From the IMG/VR virus record IMGVR_UViG_2711768057_000001: DNA of 14,415 bases; one strand, 5' to 3'. The notes beneath the pieces are model-generated. The model did not search any database, had not been told where the DNA came from, and saw nothing but the letters and a program-made list of their open reading frames with translations. This stretch comes from a virus. Its lineage: Duplodnaviria > Heunggongvirae > Uroviricota > Caudoviricetes. The position numbers and the translations under genes were made by a program. This document shows positions 1,814 to 14,415 of the stretch, in pieces (the first letter of the stretch is position 1; each line of letters begins with the position of its first letter).

Positions 1814-3712
1814 TTACTGCATATCGAGGAAGAATCTTGATGCAGGATGATATTTATAATCCCCCCAAGGCATCATTCTTTTTTCTGGATAAGTAACAAA
1901 AATCCAACGCCGAGATCGTGTTATAGCTACGAAAGCATTATTTCTTTCTTCATCTAGCTCGACTTTGCTCTTAGCTCGATAATCTGGAAAAACCCCCTCA
2001 CACATACCGATAAGGAAAACTATATCTTTTTCAAGTCCTTTCATTGTATGAACAGTACTTAACATAATCCCATTATTTAAGGTATCATCATTAAGCTGAC
2101 CCAAAGCAAGTGCATTCCTAAATGAGGATAGATTATCACCGAGGCCTTTACGTTTGAATCGTGTCCACATGGATTGAAGCTGCTCTATATCTTTAATCCC
2201 TGTGGCAATATCATCTTCTTTAGCAGAATCTTTGGTATTTGCTCCTAAATTCACCAGTTCTGATTTAATATCTAAACAGAACTTCAAAATATTAGGTGTG
2301 TCTACAGACATATGATCAATATGTGCTAAAACCAAGCTAATTAAATCTTTATCTAGGTTAGATGATTTTTTTATGTCAGCATAGACTTTGCTAATATCGT
2401 AGGTAACATCTGATTCTGGATTTAATTCTAAACCGATTAATTTATACAATCTCTTCCCATCAACCCAATCCTTTGGATTAACCTTAACCCTTATAGCAAG
2501 ATCGACTATTTTCCCAATAAGAGAAACAGGCGATTCATTTCTATCACTACGCTTTAGGAAATAAGGTATATTTCTTTTTTTAAGCTCACTTTCCATAGCT
2601 TTAAAAACAAATCTATTTCTACCTATAACAACAATTTTAGAGCAATCAATATCGCCCTCAATTTCTGGATGTCTTTTTAAATTCAGTATATGTTGAATGC
2701 TATCACAAACCCATATAGCTTCAGATTCTTCATCTGGTAAAGCATTAAAAGATTTATAGCCATCAAGAGCAGCATTAACACCAACTTGGCTATTTGGTTT
2801 TAATTTATTAGCTAATTCAATCACTGCTTTCGAAGATCTATAGTTCTCGTTTAAACAATAAATTTTAGGAGTAAAATCTTTCACGAATGATTTAATAAAA
2901 TAATCTGATGATGAACCATTAAAACCATAGATCATCTGGTCACTATCACCAACCATCATGACATCTTTTATTTTATCACCGCAGAGAACCTTTATAAATT
3001 CGTACTGAGCTCTGTTTAAGTCTTGAGCTTCATCAACAAATAAAGCAACGTATTTTTTTTGATATATTCTTGCTACTGAATCTTGATTTAATAGGATTTT
3101 ATGTGCATATAAAAGTATATCATCAAAATCCACACCACCACTTTCCAATAAAGCAGACTGATAATCTTGATAAATATTCCAAATACGCGGATTGGAACTG
3201 AATTTTATCTTTACTTCATCTTCAGTTAAAAGCTCTCTTTTAATAATAGAGAATACATTAAGATATTGACTTATAATTTTTTCACGATTGCGCTTTTCTC
3301 TAACGTCCTCAACATCTAAGTATTCATCAATATTAACCCCCTGTTCTCTTAAGGAATGTAGAAAAACCTCCATCCGATCTTGGTCACGTTCAAATATATG
3401 TAATTCTTTTGGTAACCCAATAGTATACCCATAACTTTCGAGTACCCTTTGTGCAACAGAATGAATCGTAGCAATCCAAATCCTATCACGATTTTCTGAG
3501 CCATCATCTAACCTTTCAAGCATTTCATCTGCTGCTTTATTTGTGAATGTTAAAGCAACCACACTTCCTCTAGCAGAGTTATTGAGAATGAACCTAACCC
3601 TCTCAGTAAGCACTCTTGTTTTACCAGACCCTGCAGATGCAAGAACTTGTATAGCCCCTCCCATAGGAGCTTTAACAACTTCAATTTGAGATTGTGATAA
3701 ATTATCAATCAT
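1814..3712 (-). CDS. gajB: UvrD/PcrA/Rep-like superfamily 1 helicase (632 aa), Gabija GajB-like
   Basis: SF1 helicase motifs read from the translation: I AGSGKT, Ia TFTNKAADEM, II VDEAQD, III VGDSDQMIYGF, IV NYRSS, V TVHTMKGLEKDIVF, VI VAITRSRR. Start ATG overlaps the upstream OLD-like stop (ATGA at 3709-3712). Confidence 0.8.
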   Translation of the reverse strand: MIDNLSQSQIEVVKAPMGGAIQVLASAGSGKTRVLTERVRFILNNSARGSVVALTFTNKAADEMLERLDDGSENRDRIWIATIHSVAQRVLESYGYTIGLPKELHIFERDQDRMEVFLHSLREQGVNIDEYLDVEDVREKRNREKIISQYLNVFSIIKRELLTEDEVKIKFSSNPRIWNIYQDYQSALLESGGVDFDDILLYAHKILLNQDSVARIYQKKYVALFVDEAQDLNRAQYEFIKVLCGDKIKDVMMVGDSDQMIYGFNGSSSDYFIKSFVKDFTPKIYCLNENYRSSKAVIELANKLKPNSQVGVNAALDGYKSFNALPDEESEAIWVCDSIQHILNLKRHPEIEGDIDCSKIVVIGRNRFVFKAMESELKKRNIPYFLKRSDRNESPVSLIGKIVDLAIRVKVNPKDWVDGKRLYKLIGLELNPESDVTYDISKVYADIKKSSNLDKDLISLVLAHIDHMSVDTPNILKFCLDIKSELVNLGANTKDSAKEDDIATGIKDIEQLQSMWTRFKRKGLGDNLSSFRNALALGQLNDDTLNNGIMLSTVHTMKGLEKDIVFLIGMCEGVFPDYRAKSKVELDEERNNAFVAITRSRRWIFVTYPEKRMMPWGDYKYHPASRFFLDMQ

Positions 3713-5484
3713 AGCTCAAGCCATCCCCTAACTTTATTAAATGCAATAATAACAGATTCCGGAAGTAATTCCTCAATTCTCTTTCCATTTGCATTCTGTG
3801 CTAGAATCACCCCTAAATACCCTGCATAACTAGCTTTTGAGTCACGCATTTTTTCAATTATAGCACTATCTTGTAAAGCCTCTATTTCTCTTTTCTTGGC
3901 ATCTCGATACCGTTCATTAGGACTAGCTTTGGTTTCACTTAACACTAATGATTCAATTATTTCCTCACGAATATTCAACTCGTTGTATAACTCAGCTTCA
4001 ATATCATTTGTTTCTTTGAGGAACTCTAAGGAGAAACAATCAGGATTCAATACGAGGCCATCTTCACGAACTAAACGTGCTACCTGACGGTTTATCTCAC
4101 CATGAGTATCACCATCATTATCACTAATAATACAGACAGGGATACCTAAATTACTTGCAAGTTTAATGAATGGTGGGTAATTTTTACCACTGACACTTAC
4201 ACAGTTAACTCCAACACTGAACATCGTCCTACCGAAATACAATTCAAACATGGATGGTATTAATTGTTCTTCTGTAACACCCTCACATAAAATTAAGGCT
4301 CGAGAGAAAAGCAACTCACCACGGGTTAACATTATCTCCCTTTTTAATGCATTTTTTTCATCATGTTCAATTCTTTTCTTCAGACAATTTACTGTTACTC
4401 CATCACCTTTCTTTATGAATGATCTTATATCTTCTATCTCAGCCATTGCGCTCAGGTATGGTGAATGAGTACTCAGTATAATTTGTCCCTGAGATGATGA
4501 TAACTGTTTAAACAAGGTTCTTTGTGCATTGGGATGTAGATGCGCTTCTGGCTCTTCAGCTCCAACAATTGGATGTAGCGCCTTATTTTCGAGCTCATGC
4601 CGCTCATGCATAAAGCTTAAAAACGATTGAACTGTAAGCATTGAAGCCCAACTTCTCGTCCCCGTGCCATGATATTCCATTGAAAATGAATGGTTTTCTT
4701 CATCTCCGAAATGTACTGTAAATTGCTTTGATAGATCTCGGATTTTTTTAGGGAAAGGAGTTATTTCTGTGTGGCTTGATCCTAGAAATGATTGGTTTAA
4801 CCCTTGAAGTGAATTTTTTAAGCTTTGAAGCGGCTCACTTCTACTCACTGCGGTTTCATTTATTGAACTTATCATTTCTTCAAGTGCAGTAACATCTTCA
4901 TCTTCATATTTAATATATGATAAGACCTTCCCTATATATGAGCTTTTATCTTTAAGCTCATGATGTATATCCCTCTGAGCCTCAATACAAATATAGGGGA
5001 TTGCATCAACTTTTGTTCTTACCTTTCTTCTCTCGTTGACAACAATGTCTTTCCATCCCTCAAACTCCCCCCATTCATTCAAATAATAACGTTGTGTATT
5101 AAACCCACCTTTTATCTCATCTGGCTGAACTTTTGTACGAATAGCCACAAACTCATGTCCATTTGCATCTACTGCAATATTATCACCGAAAACATCAATC
5201 CATTTTTCGTCAAACTCTTCTGTTTTATTACAATGTTCATCCGTAGGTATTATTTTTAAGTCAACGATAACTTCATTAACTTTTAATCCAGAACTATCTA
5301 TATGAAGATCTTCATCACTAAAGTAACGTTGGTAATCACCTAAAGCTAGTTGCAACGATTTTAGGAAAGATGTTTTCCCCGCATTGTTTGTACCTAACAA
5401 AACGGCAATACGTCCTAGCTCAACCTCAATTTCCTTTATACCTCTAAAACCTGAAATCCTAACAGAATTTATAAGAATTGACAT
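3709..5484 (-). CDS. gajA: OLD-family ATP-dependent nuclease (N-terminal ABC-type ATPase plus C-terminal TOPRIM; 591 aa), Gabija GajA-like
   Basis: Walker A GTNNAGKTS, Walker B-like IVGAEEPEAHLHP, H-loop STHSP, and TOPRIM motifs LILCEGVTEEQ and ISDNDGD. AGGAGG Shine-Dalgarno upstream. Paired in an operon with a UvrD-like helicase, the class 2 OLD/Gabija arrangement. Confidence 0.8.
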   Translation of the reverse strand: MSILINSVRISGFRGIKEIEVELGRIAVLLGTNNAGKTSFLKSLQLALGDYQRYFSDEDLHIDSSGLKVNEVIVDLKIIPTDEHCNKTEEFDEKWIDVFGDNIAVDANGHEFVAIRTKVQPDEIKGGFNTQRYYLNEWGEFEGWKDIVVNERRKVRTKVDAIPYICIEAQRDIHHELKDKSSYIGKVLSYIKYEDEDVTALEEMISSINETAVSRSEPLQSLKNSLQGLNQSFLGSSHTEITPFPKKIRDLSKQFTVHFGDEENHSFSMEYHGTGTRSWASMLTVQSFLSFMHERHELENKALHPIVGAEEPEAHLHPNAQRTLFKQLSSSQGQIILSTHSPYLSAMAEIEDIRSFIKKGDGVTVNCLKKRIEHDEKNALKREIMLTRGELLFSRALILCEGVTEEQLIPSMFELYFGRTMFSVGVNCVSVSGKNYPPFIKLASNLGIPVCIISDNDGDTHGEINRQVARLVREDGLVLNPDCFSLEFLKETNDIEAELYNELNIREEIIESLVLSETKASPNERYRDAKKREIEALQDSAIIEKMRDSKASYAGYLGVILAQNANGKRIEELLPESVIIAFNKVRGWLEL

Positions 5485-7356: not shown

Positions 7357-7428
7357 GTCAGGTCTCCTCTTCATTTCAATCTGAGGAGATTCTGCCGCGC
7401 CAGACACAACAACACGATTCATTGCCGT

Positions 7429-7446
7429 TGTGGCAAAAATGGCACA
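7429..7446. promoter_or_regulatory. TGT-N12-ACA dyad, candidate Ogr/Delta activator site of the late sid promoter
   Basis: TGTGGCAAAAATGGCACA lies about 75-90 bp upstream of the sid ATG on the minus strand; TGT-N12-ACA is the known recognition pattern of P2/P4 late promoters. Confidence 0.55.
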
Positions 7447-7533
7447 AACAGACCTTAAAACCCGGCTGGCCAGAGAAAGGTCTCAGGAAAACCTTACTCA
7501 CTGTTTGTTTTTTTACTAATAACTATTCACTAC

Positions 7534-7627
7534 TGTTCACCTTGAGAAAAAAGATAAGTAATACAGTTAATTAAAGGGTGAACAGTTGAAGGTCTGACTG
7601 TTCACCGTCTGTTCACCACTGTTCACC
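7534..7627. repeat. Iteron cluster: four direct copies of TGTTCACC (three at about 10 bp phasing) plus one inverted copy
   Basis: Direct copies at 7534-7541, 7599-7606, 7610-7617 and 7620-7627; inverted GGTGAACA at 7577-7584. The octamer is identical to the P4 type I iteron bound by alpha protein, as I recall it. Confidence 0.6.
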
Positions 7628-7709
7628 CTTCTGTTTTTCTCTGCCGATACCTTTTAGACTTTATTTCGATTAAAAATCGAAATATATAACTAAAGGAAAT
7701 AGAAATTGC

Positions 7710-7763
7710 TGCATTGTAATGCAGTGATTTGCATCTGTTTGCCAGCGTTTGCCTTTGTTTGCC
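7710..7763. promoter_or_regulatory. Palindrome TGCATT-GT-AATGCA followed by three helically phased GTTTGCC repeats; candidate operator upstream of vis
   Basis: Palindrome at 7710-7723; GTTTGCC at 7737-7743, 7747-7753 and 7757-7763, exactly 10 bp apart. Confidence 0.4.
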
Positions 7764-7892
7764 ATAGCGAAAAGTCAATGTTTGTTTCCATGAAAATCTC
7801 ACATGACCTGAGGAAAAATATAGACATAATAAGGAGCTACCCGAAGCCGGGCGGACACGACCGGCACAGTATGGACTTTATGAGGTAGCCCG

Positions 7893-8159
7893 ATGCACAC
7901 TGCTTTTTCTTCCCCGTCTTCTGCCCCTGCCGCGCCACTGATACCGGTCTCTGATGCCGTTCAGGAGCGATTTATCCGCCTGCCTGAAGTGATGCATCTG
8001 TGCGGCCTGTCACGGTCAACCATTTACGACCTCATCAGCCGGGAAGCCTTCCCGAAACAAATCTCCCTCGGTGGAAAAAACGTGGCGTGGGCGCACTCAG
8101 AAATCATGGCATGGATGACTGACCGCATTGCCGAACGTAACCGGGGTTATGACGCATGA
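7893..8159 (+). CDS. vis: AlpA/Vis-family helix-turn-helix regulator (88 aa)
   Basis: [48 protein letters not shown] matches the AlpA-family pattern (RLPEV...G.S..TIY......FP......V.W...EI..W). Position divergent from sid corresponds to P4 vis (orf88). Confidence 0.7.
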
Positions 8160-8512: not shown

Positions 8513-8707
8513 ATGGCTACGACCCTCACCCCGTCACACCCGCAGTTTGTTTTTGTGTTTGCCGCCGTTCGTCGCGCCGACCGTAAACTCCGCATCTGTA
8601 TGCTTCGTACCGTTGCCGGTGATGAACACGCCGCACGTCTTTCCCTCGTTCGCGATTACGTCCTCTCGTTTGCTGGCCGTCTGCCGGTTGCGGAGGTGCG
8701 CGCATGA
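8513..8707 (+). CDS. Small early-operon protein (64 aa), hypothetical; positionally kil-like
   Basis: Internal ATG at 8513 with AGGAGG Shine-Dalgarno 9 nt upstream. The upstream 119 codons of the ORF-track call (8156..8707) cover the structured RNA region and are not credible coding. Stop overlaps the next start (ATGA). Confidence 0.55.
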
Positions 8708-8931
8708 GACACTCCACCATTACCGCCCGAGACCTCGAATGTCTGGAGCATATGCGCAACGTCGGCCAGCTCGTCGGCGACCTGATGCAGGTGCAGGACT
8801 GCGCGACCGTTAGGCGTGACCCTGCGCAGCAGTTACAGCTCACCTCCGTGATTTACCTCATGACCGCCCAGCTAGACAGCGTGGTCGAGCGCTGCAATCA
8901 GCACTGGCTGACCGGGGAGGGTAATGTATGA
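8704..8931 (+). CDS. Small early-operon protein (75 aa), hypothetical
   Basis: GGAGGT Shine-Dalgarno 6 nt upstream; ATGA overlaps at both ends indicate translational coupling. Confidence 0.5.
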
Positions 8932-9248: not shown

Positions 9249-9322
9249 GGGAGAAAATAACAATGAAAATGAATGTACGGAAAAATCCTTTATATTTAAT
9301 ACATTGAGAAATTTATTCAGAC

Positions 9323-9348
9323 TCCGCCAGCTCCACCAATCATGATTG
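9323..9348. repeat. attR: imperfect direct repeat of the ssrA 3' end, right junction of the island
   Basis: CTCCGCCAGCTCCACCAATCATGATT versus attL CTCCCGCCAGCTCCACCAAATCATGATC; the two copies differ by two single-base indels and one terminal substitution. Confidence 0.7.
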
Positions 9349-9468
9349 GACGGTATAAGGACAACACCAATAAAAACAGGAAGTTAGCAGTCTCAGCAGG
9401 ACACCGACCAGACGGTGAAGAGACATAAAAGGATACGCAAAGGAGCCGCGGCTCCTGGTGACATGAAA

Positions 9469-9489
9469 GCCCACAGATGTGGGCTTTTT
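9469..9489 (+). terminator. Rho-independent terminator-like hairpin downstream of attR
   Basis: GCCCAC, loop AGAT, GTGGGC, then TTTTT; resembles the hairpin after ssrA at attL. Confidence 0.5.
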
Positions 9490-9498
9490 CGTTGATGG

Positions 9499-12400
9499 TC
9501 AGAACGACCAGTTCACACCAGCTACCCCGTTCCACGGGGATTCCACACCGGCACCATGGCTATACCCCACCCCAAGATGCCCGCTTAACGTACTGCTGAA
9601 TGAGGCTTTAATACCTGCCTGGTATATTCCACGTCTGCCCGACAAATCATTGACGAAATTACCGTCACTATTCACTTTCACCCGGTTATCATCGACAAAT
9701 TCTTTGCGCACAGCCGCCTTCAGCCACGGCTCAACTTCCATACCGTTCCCCAGACGCATGTTGTAACTCAGCGTTGCACCCAGTTCACGATATAAACTGC
9801 GGGTATCGACTGATTTCGATTCCATGCCATTGGATAAATGATATTCAGGGTTATCAGCGGTGAACCCCCGTTAACGATGCATACGGCGTCAGGTTCCAGT
9901 TACCATCGGTAAATCGCATCCCGGTTTCAATGTGACCGCCCAGCCCGTTGCTGCGATAACTGCCGTTGGCGGCTCCACCGCTGCCAACCGTGGAGTCGCG
10001 AGCTTCGGTACCTGCTAATACCAATAAATTACCGCCATTTTCCAGCAACATATTGGTCGCTAAATTGCCGGAAATGGAAAAAGTGCCGTACTGGTGAGTA
10101 CCGCTGATTTCAATACCGTTAGCCGTGCTCGTCTGGAGAGCGGCACCGCTGTTCTGGACGATATCTGTCGCTTTGCCATTATCGTTAACTGTCAGCGTAC
10201 CGCCTTCATTGATCTTTGTTTTTATTGCCTCTCCGTTAGCTGAAACTGTTTGTATTCCGCCGTCGTTAATCGTTGTCTCATTCGCCACCCCCTCGACGAT
10301 TTGTTCGCCGCCGGTGAGCGTCGTGCCTGTCGCAGTGGCTTTTGTTTTGACGATCTCCCGTCCGCCCGTATTGACCTGTGTTTTGTCAGAAGAGGTGTCT
10401 GACTCCATGGTTAACACGCCGCCATTTGCCAGCAGGATATTGTTCGCCGCACCCTGCTCGATGCTGAACGCGACGCCATCCGCGCGTGTTCCTGTGACCC
10501 GCGTCGCCCTGGTGGTTGCAACCAAAGCGTCCTGGCTACTCTGCTGTATCCCCGTTGCGCTGCCTTTCTCCCGCACATCGAGTGTGCCGCCGTCATTAAG
10601 CACCGAGTTTTCAGCCAGACCGCCCTCATTAACTACCTGTGAACACCCATTAATAATGGAACCTTCCGCTGTCCCGTTTGCCATAATTTGTTGTAGGCCA
10701 GAGACGATATCGGTATTGATTGCCTTACCATAATTCTGAACGGTTTGCGTGCCACCATTGATGTGTGTTTTCTCTGTTGACCCACCATCAACAATTTGTT
10801 CACCACTTTCGATATTTGCCTCAGTGGCTAATCCATATACCGTTTGCTTGCCACCTTTGATATTTGCTTTATCAGAAGTGGCACTGGCATATATTGTTTG
10901 GGTGCCAGCACTATTGAGTACAGTGCCAACATCTTTTCCATAAACATCCATTTTGCCGTTGGCATTAATAATCGTATCAACTGCCCGGGAACCAGTGACG
11001 ACTGTTAATGAGCCAGCGTTTTCCAGCACTACATTTTTAGCTTCTGAATTCCTGATGTAGAAAGCATCACCATAACTGTTGGTTCCTTCGATAAGGGTTC
11101 CGGAAGTTGTGGAAGCAATTAATGCGCCGCCGGATTGTTGCTCAACATGCTTAGCCTCACCACCGTCCTGAACCTCCAGAACGCCACCATTATTAAGTCT
11201 GGTGGTATCTGTTTTAGCCTCCTTCTGGACAATCAGCTTACCGCCAGCATCAACGGTAGTATTTTTCGCCGAGGTTTTAGCCACTACCGTCAGTTCGCCG
11301 GTATTTTCCAGCACAACATAATTAGCCTCCCCTCCGGTAATAGTGAAGTGAGAGAGCTTGTTGTATCCTTCAATATCAGTCCCTGCGCCCGTGTTGGCAA
11401 CTAAAGCACTGCCCGTCTCCTGGTTAACCCCATGTGCAATACCACCGGTATAGACAATCAGCGAGCCTCCGGCGCTAATATTGCTGCCAGTTGCCGTACC
11501 ATCTTTCTCAACAACCTGCCGGCTCCCGGAGGATATAATTGTCGTGTCAGCTTTCCCGCCGCTCTTGATATTTTGCGTTCCGCCGTTGATATTGGTACCC
11601 GTGGCAATACCATGATTATTAATATTCTGTGTACCACCATTGATTATGGTATTGGTCGCGTTTCCGGTAACATCCATTACCCCGCCGTTATCTATTCGGG
11701 TCGCATCAGCTTTAGCATTCGTTAAAACTGACATTGTTCCTTTATCTTTAATAATCGTCTTGTTTGCCGAACCATATGCGTTTATGTCTAAATGACCACC
11801 GTTTTCCAGCAACACATTGTCTGCCACGTGATTGTGGATGGAGAATGCACCTTCACTATTCGTACCGCTCACCGTCGTACCGTTAGTGTTTGTTTTTAAA
11901 ATTGCACCATCGTGCTGGGTAACATTTGTTGCCGTACCACCACTAACATCAAGCACGCCACCGGAATAAACTTCAATAACATCCGAGGAGCTGGTGTAAT
12001 CAACAATTTGCGTACCACCAGAATAGATCTGAGTATTTTTGCCGTTGACTTATTATTCAGAGACTGAGTTCCACCTTCAATCATCGTGTCCAGCGCATGG
12101 CTTTCATATACTCTTTGCTCACCGCCATTTTTAATGGTGGTTGTTCCTACTGTGCTCTGTTCAACATACTGTCGTCCACCATTTATGATTGTGTTCGTTG
12201 CAATACTTCCTTGCGTGATGTCCTGATAACCGGACTTATTTATCGTTGTACCATCAACATGCCCCTGAGTTGTTACTTTCTGCCCTCCACCATCAATGAT
12301 GGTTCCATTCGCAGTCCCCCCACTTATGTGTGAATTACCACCCTTAATTGTCGTTCCATTGCTGATACCACCTGTATAAACGTCCTGATTGCCACTGTCG

Positions 12401-12768
12401 ATTATCGTACCGGTGGAAATGCCCCCGTCATGAATTGTCTGTCTTCCTCCGTTAATGGTTGTATTATTAGCCTGCCCCACAAAATTGTTATGACTTCCTA
12501 CATCTTGATATCCACCCGATTCAATAAGACTTCCATTAGATACCCCGCCATGAACATTCTGCTGGCCATGGTTGATAATATGAGTGTTATTTGTTGTACC
12601 TCGTTCATCTACTCTTTGGCTGCCATCTACAGTCTCATCGTTTACCACACCAATAACATCAGGAGTGAAGGCCGTCATCCCAGGCGGGGCATATATCAAG
12701 GCAGATATCAATAAGGAAAGTACTGAGCGGCGACAATAATGGGGACTGGTCCTGTTCATAAATTTCAT
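9499..12768 (-). pseudogene. ypjA: ypjA-like autotransporter adhesin split over three reading frames, with a short C-terminal beta-domain
   Basis: N-terminal fragment has a signal peptide (MKFMNRTSPHYCRRSVLSLLISALIYAPPGMTA); a 700 aa repetitive passenger region follows; the C-terminal fragment ends ...GVESPWNGVAGVNWSF, the autotransporter terminal signature. The three ORFs (11896..12888, 9854..11956, 9499..9825) are contiguous but in different frames. Confidence 0.7.
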
Positions 12769-13139
12769 CCTCTGAAAAGTGAATACTGAGTAGCGTTTAA
12801 GCGACCTTAGCTCTGCTGCAACATCAGCCCACAGGCACCAGACCAGGGGATTCATCCTGAAGAGACAGCGCAAGTGTATTGTGTTCACCGCTCATCAAAG
12901 ACATCATGATGAAATGATGATATTCCACATAAGAAAGAAGCATTTTTTAAACGCAGTGCGCTGAAGTATGGTTGGATAAAAAAGTCAATCTATTCAGGGA
13001 ATACGGGGGTATTCTTTTCTTTCGACAATCAGGCCGTCGGCAAAATAAAATGATTTACATAATCGTTTCTGATGAATATCTTCTGCTCACATAAAAATAA
13101 CACAATAACTTTGAGATCGCAGATTCTTTTACTTTTACA

Positions 13140-13290
13140 GCATTCGTCCCCCCATTGTTGGGCAAATATAGATTGGGCCAGAGCACGAAAGTTAATACCA
13201 CGTTTGCACAGCTCCTCCAACAGCACGACAAGATGCCACATACTGCGCCCCAGTCGGTTCGGTTTACAGACTACCCGTGCGTCCACCGCC
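13140..13290 (-). pseudogene. Serine recombinase (Pin/Hin/Gin-type invertase) remnant; approximate extent
   Basis: ORF 13029..13286 contains VVCKPNRLGRSMWHLVVLLEELCKRGINFRAL, matching the conserved invertase motif (VVWKLDRLGRS...L...EL...GI.FRSL). The catalytic N-terminus and the C-terminal HTH are absent. Confidence 0.4.
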
Positions 13291-13671
13291 GATAATGTCC
13301 TGAGCAGTTTTTTCAGTCCGGACCTCCTGCCACGGTTTTACGTTGAAGAGGTAACCCTGAGCACGCAGTTCATCAGTCAGGCGTGGTGTACCGTAACCCT
13401 ATTATTGATGGGTAAGATCAAAAAAACTTTCAGGCAGCTAAGGAAAGTTGAACCAGACATTAGAATAAATATTTCAACCAATTACAGCACCAATTCAGAC
13501 ACCGCCAGCTCAACAAATAAATCAAGGGGTTACGTGAAAGCGTAGCCCCTTTTTCTTTGGTAGTGGCAGCAAAATGGTTGTAGTGTAAAAAATAATCCCG
13601 TTTAATCAATCAATAATACATATTGTTTCAATCTACGTTATTATCTCTTTGTAAAAATAGCCATTTATTAA

Positions 13672-14415
13672 TCATTGAAAACTGCTTTTAGAACTTGATA
13701 CAACGGGACTAGTCACAACAGGACTATTCTCAACGGGATCATCCTCAGAGGAACTATCATCAAAGTCATCATCCATAAATAAAATATCATCGAATGGTGC
13801 CACGCCCGTGATGAGTTTTATTTTATTATTACGATCAGTCAAGACTCCACTTAAACCGTTTTCGCTCACAGGTTTTAATGATTTTTCATTACTCTTGTTG
13901 TAAGCAGGCGCATTAAAAATACACGGAGTATCAAGATCAAACAATGACGTTCCCCAGTTCACATATTGAATATCATAGTTACTGAAGTTCTGTCCAGAAA
14001 AGAAGCATCCCTTAAAATCCAATCCACCTAAATTATATAAACCATCCTCTTCTTTTTGGAGAGCAATGTTAATTTTGGCTATCTCCCGGACATCATCGCC
14101 ATTTTTATATTTGAATACCGTTTCAAGATTTTCCCCACACAGTTTGACTTCTGGAAATAATTTGAAATCAAAGCCTATATTATTATGTATCAACGTAGAT
14201 GAACAAAAGATGGAGAAAGCTTGCAGTGCTGAATTATAGCTTTCGATTTTATCCTGAGGCTGCGCTCTTGGTAAAAACTCATAGCAACATTCATAAAAAT
14301 TAAGTAGAAACTCTGAAGACCTTCCATTTTTATCAAATAATATCCCCTTGAACTCATTCACAAACGCATCTTTTTTTTCTTGAATATCTATGGGGTGTTC
14401 CTTTGACTCTGACAA
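13672..14415 (-). CDS. Hypothetical protein, 5' end truncated by the window edge (at least 247 aa), AT-rich, acidic Ser/Val/Pro-rich C-terminus
   Basis: Open frame from the window edge to the stop at 13672. No domain I can recognise; composition suggests horizontally acquired DNA. Confidence 0.5.
   Translation of the reverse strand: MSESKEHPIDIQEKKDAFVNEFKGILFDKNGRSSEFLLNFYECCYEFLPRAQPQDKIESYNSALQAFSIFCSSTLIHNNIGFDFKLFPEVKLCGENLETVFKYKNGDDVREIAKINIALQKEEDGLYNLGGLDFKGCFFSGQNFSNYDIQYVNWGTSLFDLDTPCIFNAPAYNKSNEKSLKPVSENGLSGVLTDRNNKIKLITGVAPFDDILFMDDDFDDSSSEDDPVENSPVVTSPVVSSSKSSFQ

Follow-up and report, generated by a model that had tools for sequence, protein, structure and literature searches.

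Three direct GTTTGCC(A) repeats, which may extend to four, lie upstream of the PLL promoter of a P4-like satellite and probably form a binding array for the Apl protein of a helper phage, through which the satellite would sense a 186-like helper (Peduoviridae, Eganvirus and relatives). The array was analysed in a 14,415-nucleotide stretch of DNA, referred to here as the window. Supporting this reading are the phasing of the repeats, their synteny with the Cox boxes of P4, their identity with footprinted Apl operators, their single location and the absence of covariation with Vis, all of which were observed in the sequences compared.

The genes of the window follow the order found in satellite phage P4, and we therefore read it as a P4-like satellite, in this case a truncated prophage inserted at ssrA. 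Its main components are as follows.

40-402: ssrA (tmRNA).
586-1776: tyrosine integrase gene int.
1814-5484, minus strand, between int and psu: two genes with a 4-bp overlap, one for a 632-aa UvrD-like helicase, the other for a 591-aa ATPase of the OLD family that carries a TOPRIM domain.
After this pair, minus strand: psu, an 81-aa Ogr/Delta zinc-finger gene (delta) and a sid-like gene.
Between sid and vis: an intergenic region of 470 bp that aligns with the P4 ori/PLL region.
7893-8159, plus strand: vis, encoding an AlpA-family excisionase/regulator (88 aa; Pfam Phage_AlpA, 1.5e-20) that aligns with P4 ORF88/Vis; the operon that follows the boxes starts with vis.
Downstream of vis: an Ash-family gene (ash/epsilon-like), then a 75-aa ORF, then a DUF5375 (cnr-like) gene.

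The UvrD-like/OLD pair looks like a Gabija-type defence system, and it occupies the known defence hotspot of P4-like satellites. The window is identical to a region of E. coli KSC9 over the 737-bp segment compared. The KSC9 element ends after the cnr-like gene, and fragments of the ypjA autotransporter pseudogene come next. In the window, positions 9249-14415 hold ypjA/AIDA-type autotransporter pseudogene fragments, a resolvase fragment and ypjC in place of alpha, and the same was seen in locus L172. The alpha primase-helicase gene is thus absent from the window element. It is found, with about 774 aa, in all 39 sampled relatives whose contigs extend far enough, being truncated in two of them, and the copy in the window is on this ground a truncated satellite. 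Lacking alpha, this copy could at most drive the expression of vis and ash and excision, not replication, and given this loss its array may be a relic.

Exact match searches located GTTTGCC on the plus strand at 7737-7743, 7747-7753 and 7757-7763, with starts spaced 10 bp apart, and the palindrome core TGCATTGTAATGCA at 7710-7723, so that both elements described in the earlier note were recovered where it had placed them. Tandem Repeats Finder reported a period of 10 and 3.6 copies at 7728-7763. A fourth, degenerate unit, ATTTGCATCT, was detected at 7727-7736 in phase with the GTTTGCC triple, which makes the array longer than first described. The four units, three exact and one degenerate, are all direct and on one strand with spacings of 10, 10 and 10 bp, and the trinucleotide TGC recurs every 10 bp at 7710, 7720, 7730, 7740, 7750 and 7760. 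These 10-bp direct repeats support the helically phased, cooperative-operator architecture that the earlier note had proposed. The GTTTGCC 7-mer itself was not enriched in the window (6 copies where 2.35 would be expected, with at least 6 in 4 of 200 shuffles); unlike this count, the phased triple exceeds chance. The intergenic region contains the following elements.

7429-7446: TGT-N12-ACA, TGTGGCAAAAATGGCACA, predicted Delta/Ogr-type activator site of the divergent sid promoter, the only one in 7423-7892.
7532-7541, 7577-7586 (in inverted orientation) and 7597-7627 (with three copies): replication iterons TGTTCACC of the alpha-binding P4 'type 1', separate from the boxes.
7703-7730, no strand: imperfect palindrome AAATTGCTGCATT-GT-AATGCAGTGATTT, from an inverted-repeat search.
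7727-7736, plus strand: weaker fourth box ATTTGCATCT, with core TTGCAT.
7737-7766, plus strand: three strong Apl-type boxes GTTTGCCAGC, GTTTGCCTTT and GTTTGCCATA, exact matches, with 6-bp cores TTGCCA (7739-7744), TTGCCT (7749-7754) and TTGCCA (7759-7764).
7803-7830, plus strand: putative PLL promoter from a promoter scan, with -35-like ATGACC (7803-7808) and -10 CATAAT (7825-7830).

The GTTTGCC set is distinct from the TGTTCACC iterons, as had been claimed, since the two differ in sequence and the iterons occupy 7532-7627. The iterons carry the label 'ori type 1 repeat' in the P4 annotation, and this part of the window is the homologue of the P4 ori. Conservation with P4 covers the iterons and the 80 bp before vis, but not the middle of the intergenic region. 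The ATGACC/CATAAT pair is the only sigma-70-like match on the plus strand in 7423-7900 and lies within a block, directly preceding orf88/vis, over which the window and P4 can be aligned. PLL would start near 7837, and the strong boxes would then occupy about -100 to -71. The earlier note had assigned to the repeats the control of vis or of the late leftward promoter; the position agrees with this assignment, with the boxes upstream of the putative PLL that would drive vis, and the control itself is a prediction.

The palindrome was analysed in the same way. Its core TGCATTGTAATGCA sits inside the longer imperfect inverted repeat at 7703-7730, which has 13-nt arms with 85% complementarity, and the corresponding DNA hairpin (-7.1 kcal/mol, z = -2.2) was moderately better than those of shuffled sequences. 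The two TGCA of the palindrome, at 7710 and 7720, carry on the 10-bp phase of the boxes. The palindrome is kept in close relatives; in two satellites (L006 and L016) the arms are altered and the phased TGCA are retained. The palindrome of the earlier note is thus present, but a role as a separate operator found no support: its TGCA are in the phase of the repeats and persist where the arms change. It may instead provide weak spreading sites for the protein that binds the boxes. A transcription terminator was considered for the palindrome and rejected on three grounds: only three G-C pairs, the lack of a proper T run and a modest z-score. Likewise, a minus-strand sigma-54 promoter (TGGCAA...TGCA), judged by eye, was discarded because its GG and GC stand one base too close together and the motif is accounted for by the Apl match. 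A perfect 10-nt palindrome, TATTTCGATT-AAA-AATCGAAATA, was also seen at 7662-7684 in the AT-rich stretch between iterons and boxes; its right arm is not kept in most close relatives, which makes it probably incidental.

Pairwise alignment and the P4 annotation showed that P4 has, at this very spot, three 'ori type 2 repeats' of 10 bp in tandem, equal to the window array in place, period and copy number but different in sequence. The P4 repeats, on the opposite strand, read TTAAAGCCA, TTAAAGTCA and TTAAAGCAA and match the Cox-box consensus TTAAA(G/C)NC(A/C) (PMC3936717, PMC5009727) at 9/9, 9/9 and 8/9 positions. P2 Cox binds such boxes upstream of the PLL promoter of P4 with a protected stretch of at least 70 nt, activates PLL and is needed for derepression of the P4 prophage, and W-phi Cox, which has another specificity, does not activate P4 (PMC3936717, PMC5009727). 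In view of these data, the spot is in P4 a helper-sensing operator, and what databases label 'ori type 2 repeats' should be regarded as Cox boxes with a regulatory function and not as proven parts of an origin. Knowledge of the helper Cox boxes of P4 goes back decades, to the work of Saha et al. as it is cited in PMC3936717.

The array of the window occupies the position of the P4 Cox boxes, upstream of PLL and between the type 1 iterons and vis, as indicated by the alignment and in agreement with the promoter scan. The two arrays share the 10-bp period, the three strong copies and a location roughly 70-120 bp upstream of the promoter; in both, a satellite would carry the operator of a recombination-directionality factor encoded by its helper, which for the window is a prediction. 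They differ in sequence (GTTTGCCA in the window, TTAAAGNCA in P4), in strand, with the strong boxes on the vis strand in the window and on the opposite one in P4, and in the protein that reads them, which is P2 Cox in P4 and would be the Apl of 186-like phages in the window. In 7641-7892, a search of the window for Cox boxes yielded one 8/9 match, at 7873, and no cluster.

The sequence of the boxes points to Apl, the 186 counterpart of P2 Cox, which acts both as an excisionase and as the repressor of the lytic switch (PMC7498355). The RefSeq record of coliphage 186 annotates five Apl excisionase sites at attP and 7 between pR and pL. These are TTGCCA-type direct repeats 10-11 bp apart, and they include GTTTGCCAAT, GTTTGCCAAC and GTTTGCAATT. 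The decamers of the window recur in the Apl sites of the 186 attP and switch (GTTTGCCAAT, GTTTGCCAAC) and in the attP of Yersinia phage GCS667, and the TTGCAA site of 186, GTTTGCAATT, may be compared with the weak window core TTGCAT. The same stretches of 186 were the oligonucleotides of the Apl binding assays (PMC7498355 supplement), and in foreign DNA a set of three neighbouring operators is enough for Apl to bind and spread (PMC7498355). A 10-column weight matrix was built from the 12 annotated 186 Apl sites only and run over both strands for three sites 10-11 bp apart. The strong boxes scored 9.4, 11.2 and 11.7 bits and the fourth box 7.0 bits. The best three-site score of the window was 32.3 bits, at 7737-7766, compared with 16.5 bits elsewhere in the window; in 300 shuffles of the window the mean was 14.5 (sd 2.1) and the maximum 22.6 bits, so that 0 of 300 reached the observed value. 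With the same matrix, GCS667 gave 35.1 bits and Klebsiella phage Kp4882-2 30.3 bits; the P4 sid-vis region gave 7.8 bits and the switch and att region of P2 10.2 bits.

A BLAST search with window 7700-7775 against 50,697 phage records led to the same group of phages. The best match (E = 0.01) was GCS667, a 186-like Eganvirus, in which GTTTGCCAAT GTTTGCCAGC ATTTGCCAAT GTTTGCCATT stand right beside int; its cI-apl intergenic region contains six to seven TTGGCAA, the reverse complement, at 10-11 bp spacing. The other matches were to six Klebsiella Peduoviridae (E about 2) and to eleven unrelated phages (E = 2-8). In Kp4882-2, the one Klebsiella phage examined, the motif lies between apl and cI.

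With the Apl operators of 186 the window array shares the TTGCCA core, the flanking GTT, the direct spacing of 10-11 bp and the tolerated variants TTGCAA and TTACCT. It differs from them in belonging to a satellite and having 3-4 copies, against five at attP and seven between pR and pL in 186, and in standing upstream of a promoter instead of between two convergent promoters or at att. The outcome expected in the window, by analogy, would be activation, which is not described for Apl. The window is a P4-like satellite and not an Apl-encoding 186-like phage with a pR-pL switch or attP, and its array is on that account a heterologous operator copy and not a strict member of the class. In copy number (at least three direct repeats) and helical-turn spacing it fits an operator array of the Xis/Cox/Apl type. 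Direct repeats one helical turn apart are also found in the lambda Xis, Gifsy-1 Xis and HP1 Cox arrays, on which the proteins bind cooperatively, head to tail, and bend the DNA (PMC7498355); for the window such binding is a prediction. Unlike those arrays, which act in recombination at the att site of the protein's own element, the window array is located at a promoter and the presumed protein would come from another element.

To see how the array behaves in related elements, genome contigs were scanned with the Vis protein, which gave 45 loci across Enterobacteriaceae. Nearly all of them have three to six direct repeats at a 10-bp phase about 100-200 bp upstream of vis. The commonest class at this spot is (G)TTTGCCA, which also occurs inverted as TTGGCAAAC; the others are GGCCAAT, TGCA(C), GTGCGAGGAT, CCCTTA and, in P4 and one close relative, Cox boxes. 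When the 186 matrix was applied to 43 satellite loci (about 480 kb), 19 had exactly one array of at least 24 bits. All 19 arrays, whichever strand they are on, lie at -199 to -127 relative to the start codon of vis, and none was found elsewhere in the approximately 480 kb. An exact-pattern scan of IMG/VR for TTTGCC-N4-TTTGCC-N4-TTTGCC, with counts taken from the first 120 stretches, returned among the 120 matches listed at least 25 P4-like satellites, in which the pattern precedes vis by about 150-185 bp, and at least 10 186-like phages, in which it lies about 30-60 bp beyond the 3′ end of int; the remainder of the 120 were unrelated. The Apl of these ten phages, where it is on the fragment, is 78-100% identical to GCS667 Apl. 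As for the check proposed earlier, conservation in related elements, the array and palindrome are almost invariant in the window clade, even where Sid is only 25-27% identical, but other satellites carry other repeat classes.

Helper phages were examined from the other side. All of 80 186-like int loci from IMG/VR carry phased direct repeats between apl and cI, in the classes TTGCCA, GGGCAAT, CGCCAATATCCAC, ATGTCA and TATGTGTA. Satellite arrays and 186-like switch regions shared 1.47 8-mers per pair, about 3 times the 0.3-0.8 of control combinations. By eye, some satellites of non-TTGCCA classes resemble particular helpers: L022 and L033 resemble helper L331, and L044 resembles helper L353. 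BLAST of the L022 (GGCCAAT) and L045 (TGCAC) arrays against phage genomes yielded chance matches only, the strict GGCCAAT pattern in IMG/VR detected satellites (10 of 15 matches) and no helper, and an IMG/VR scan for four TGCA at 10-bp spacing found no relevant element. Pattern and BLAST searches identified no helper operator matching the GTGCGAGGAT, CCCTTA or TGCAC classes. Satellites with nearly the same Vis and other decamers were noted, having GTGCGAGGAT, CCCTTAnnnn or nTGCAnnnnn (L018 and L035, at -200 to -150 from vis; L031, L045 and L039). The array class showed no evident covariation with the type of Ash/epsilon, Sid, Delta or Psu.

The earlier note had implied a reader encoded by the element itself, either Vis-like or Delta-like. 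According to the first of these possibilities, the repeats are the satellite's own Vis operator, to which Vis binds cooperatively to autoregulate PLL. Recombination-directionality factors do bind direct repeats one helical turn apart (PMC7498355), vis lies immediately downstream of the repeats, and P4 Vis is described as a regulator of the P4 late promoters and PLL and as an attP binder. However, the DNA-binding segment of Vis (helix-turn-helix and wing) is nearly invariant across satellites with GTTTGCCA, GTGCGAGGAT, CCCTTA, GGCCAAT, TGCAC and Cox boxes; between L017 (TTTGCCA) and L018 (GTGCGAGGAT) it differs by one residue. Because this region is constant while the repeats vary, Vis is improbable as their reader, and the repeats at the corresponding spot of P4 are P2 Cox boxes. 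Sequence comparison of Vis with Apl also gave no significant similarity. In addition, the att-int spacer, where P4 Vis is reported to act between the att core and int (PMC7498355), holds another phased motif and no TTGCCA array. In the window, between the ssrA att core and int (405-510), (A/G)TCC is phased at 10 bp at 409/419 and 483/493/503, and the attP-int spacer of P4 (L003 3975-4075, minus strand) has the same phased (A/G)TCC although its att core and arm-type Int sites differ. The (A/G)TCC arrays are better candidate Vis sites than the boxes. A Vis site at PLL that overlaps the boxes is possible, since P4 Vis is reported to regulate PLL.

Delta was discounted because the sole TGT-N12-ACA of the intergenic region lies at 7429-7446, before sid. 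P4 likewise has a TGT-N12-ACA in its sid-proximal stretch (TGTgccagccctgacACA). An Apl homologue encoded by the satellite was also rejected. In some loci, the C-terminus of the 75-aa ORF, whose function is unknown and which is not in P4, resembles the Apl helix-turn-helix over 18 residues (E = 0.005-0.05), but the window copy (8704-8931) had no match, and a satellite whose repeats are unrelated has this ORF at 98% identity. The likeness consists of AQLDGVVERCNHRWFTGE against AELEGVSERTAYRWTTGD, at L007 6980-7063 and L014 2983-3036. A tblastn search with Apl itself gave no match in the window and only matches of 15-28 residues in the 42 other satellite loci. A 186-like cI-int pair that stands beside the satellite on contig L061 has a different switch sequence. 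With Vis, Delta and an Apl homologue of the satellite all discounted, the Apl of a helper is the most economical reader.

We infer that Apl binds at the boxes of the window and that its binding would activate, not repress. When a 186-like helper infects or its prophage is induced, Apl, the product of the first gene of the early lytic operon, would become available. Its monomers would attach cooperatively to the direct repeats in head-to-tail order, with one monomer for each turn of the helix, bending the DNA, and would polymerise on the boxes at about -100 to -71 and over weaker sites as far as about -130. In analogy to the action of P2 Cox on P4, the Apl array would then turn on PLL, leading to transcription of vis for excision, of the ash/epsilon-like gene and, in intact relatives, also of the alpha replication gene. 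The satellite would in this way wake only once a suitable helper has entered lytic growth. Apl is known as a repressor and an excisionase, and activation of PLL by Apl is an analogy with P2 Cox; this counts against the model, as does the number of good boxes, 3-4 compared with 5-7 in 186 and at least six Cox boxes in P2 and P4. Further points against it are the loss of alpha, a PLL with no canonical TGT-N12-ACA, and the failure of the searches to turn up an exact helper counterpart for the other repeat classes.

The same sequence evidence for Apl binding would serve another explanation, in which the repeats are a decoy: a multicopy satellite would titrate helper Apl and disturb the excision or the lysis-lysogeny balance of the helper, with little effect on PLL. 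P4-like satellites interfere with their helpers (PMC8628076), and extra arrays could compete for Apl, whose affinity for each site is low and whose binding is cooperative (PMC7498355). We regard this as quite unlikely, because in every satellite having an array it is fixed just upstream of PLL and nowhere else in about 480 kb, which argues for a role linked to the promoter, because the precedent at the same P4 position is activation, and because 3-4 sites make a weak sink. Least probable of all is a structural part of the replication origin, with phased T-tracts that bend the DNA or sites for a replication protein in alpha-dependent initiation: the P4 GenBank records do put the homologous repeats inside the 'origin of DNA replication', T-tracts at a 10-bp phase would be expected to give intrinsic curvature and the type 1 iterons are about 110 bp away, but alpha (72-85% identical to P4 across the family) and the type 1 iterons are conserved while the type 2 spot changes class and orientation, a variability not expected if a conserved replication protein were the reader, the match of the sequences is to operators of helper regulators instead, and the window element has no alpha.

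If the repeats are helper Apl operators, the spot upstream of PLL might be, at even chances in our judgement, an exchangeable 'helper address', at which each satellite copies the Cox/Apl-type operator of the helper lineage it exploits. Examples would be the Cox boxes of P4, the TTGCCA Apl boxes of the window and about 40% of the relatives sampled, and the related boxes GGCCA and GGGCAAT of other relatives, with GTGCGAGGAT, CCCTTA and TGCAC as yet unmatched. A Citrobacter satellite (L016, 5830-5900) is a mosaic in which the window-type TGCA/TTGCC array runs directly into the other common kind of PLL (…AAAAATCGCTCTGTTGTGTG…), an arrangement suggestive of recombination at the boxes and of modular exchange. 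Helper Cox boxes in P4 were already known; what appears to be new is the presence of Apl-type boxes at the same place in P4 relatives, where they are common while the class of P4 is rare. The papers searched made no mention of them, although an earlier description may exist in the older work on P4 and 186, and a family-wide comparative study of P4-like satellites does not mention Cox or its boxes (PMC8628076).

The pairs of helper and satellite in mobilisation are largely unknown for thousands of P4-like elements in Enterobacterales. If the spot is such a helper address, P4 with its P2-specific boxes would be the exception, and many enterobacterial satellites would be wired to 186-like helpers. 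The sequence of the array would then predict from DNA which helper wakes which satellite, and exchanging the 30-bp array should make a satellite, or a delivery vector based on P4, respond to a different helper. 186-like helpers are reported to be SOS-inducible. Induction of the satellites and of their defence systems, here the Gabija-like pair, would then be tied to the induction of 186-like prophages.

Some further features of the promoter region were noted. TGT-N12-ACA is the activator site of P2/P4 late promoters and is bound by Delta/Ogr proteins. No such site centred near -55 was found at the putative PLL of the window, the only intergenic copy being the one before sid. The nearest candidate at the PLL of the window clade is TGT-N12-AAA at 7779-7796, centred near -50, where P4 has a perfect site; judged by these sequences, PLL of the window clade may be less dependent on Delta/Ogr. 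The 5′ leader of vis contains a GC-rich inverted repeat, GCCGG-N10-CCGGC (7838-7857), in a block that is kept in the aligned window-type satellites and in P4, and this repeat may form a hairpin in the RNA or serve as a site for a protein. Across the promoter and leader (7806-7871), TCC occurs on the minus strand every 20-21 bp.
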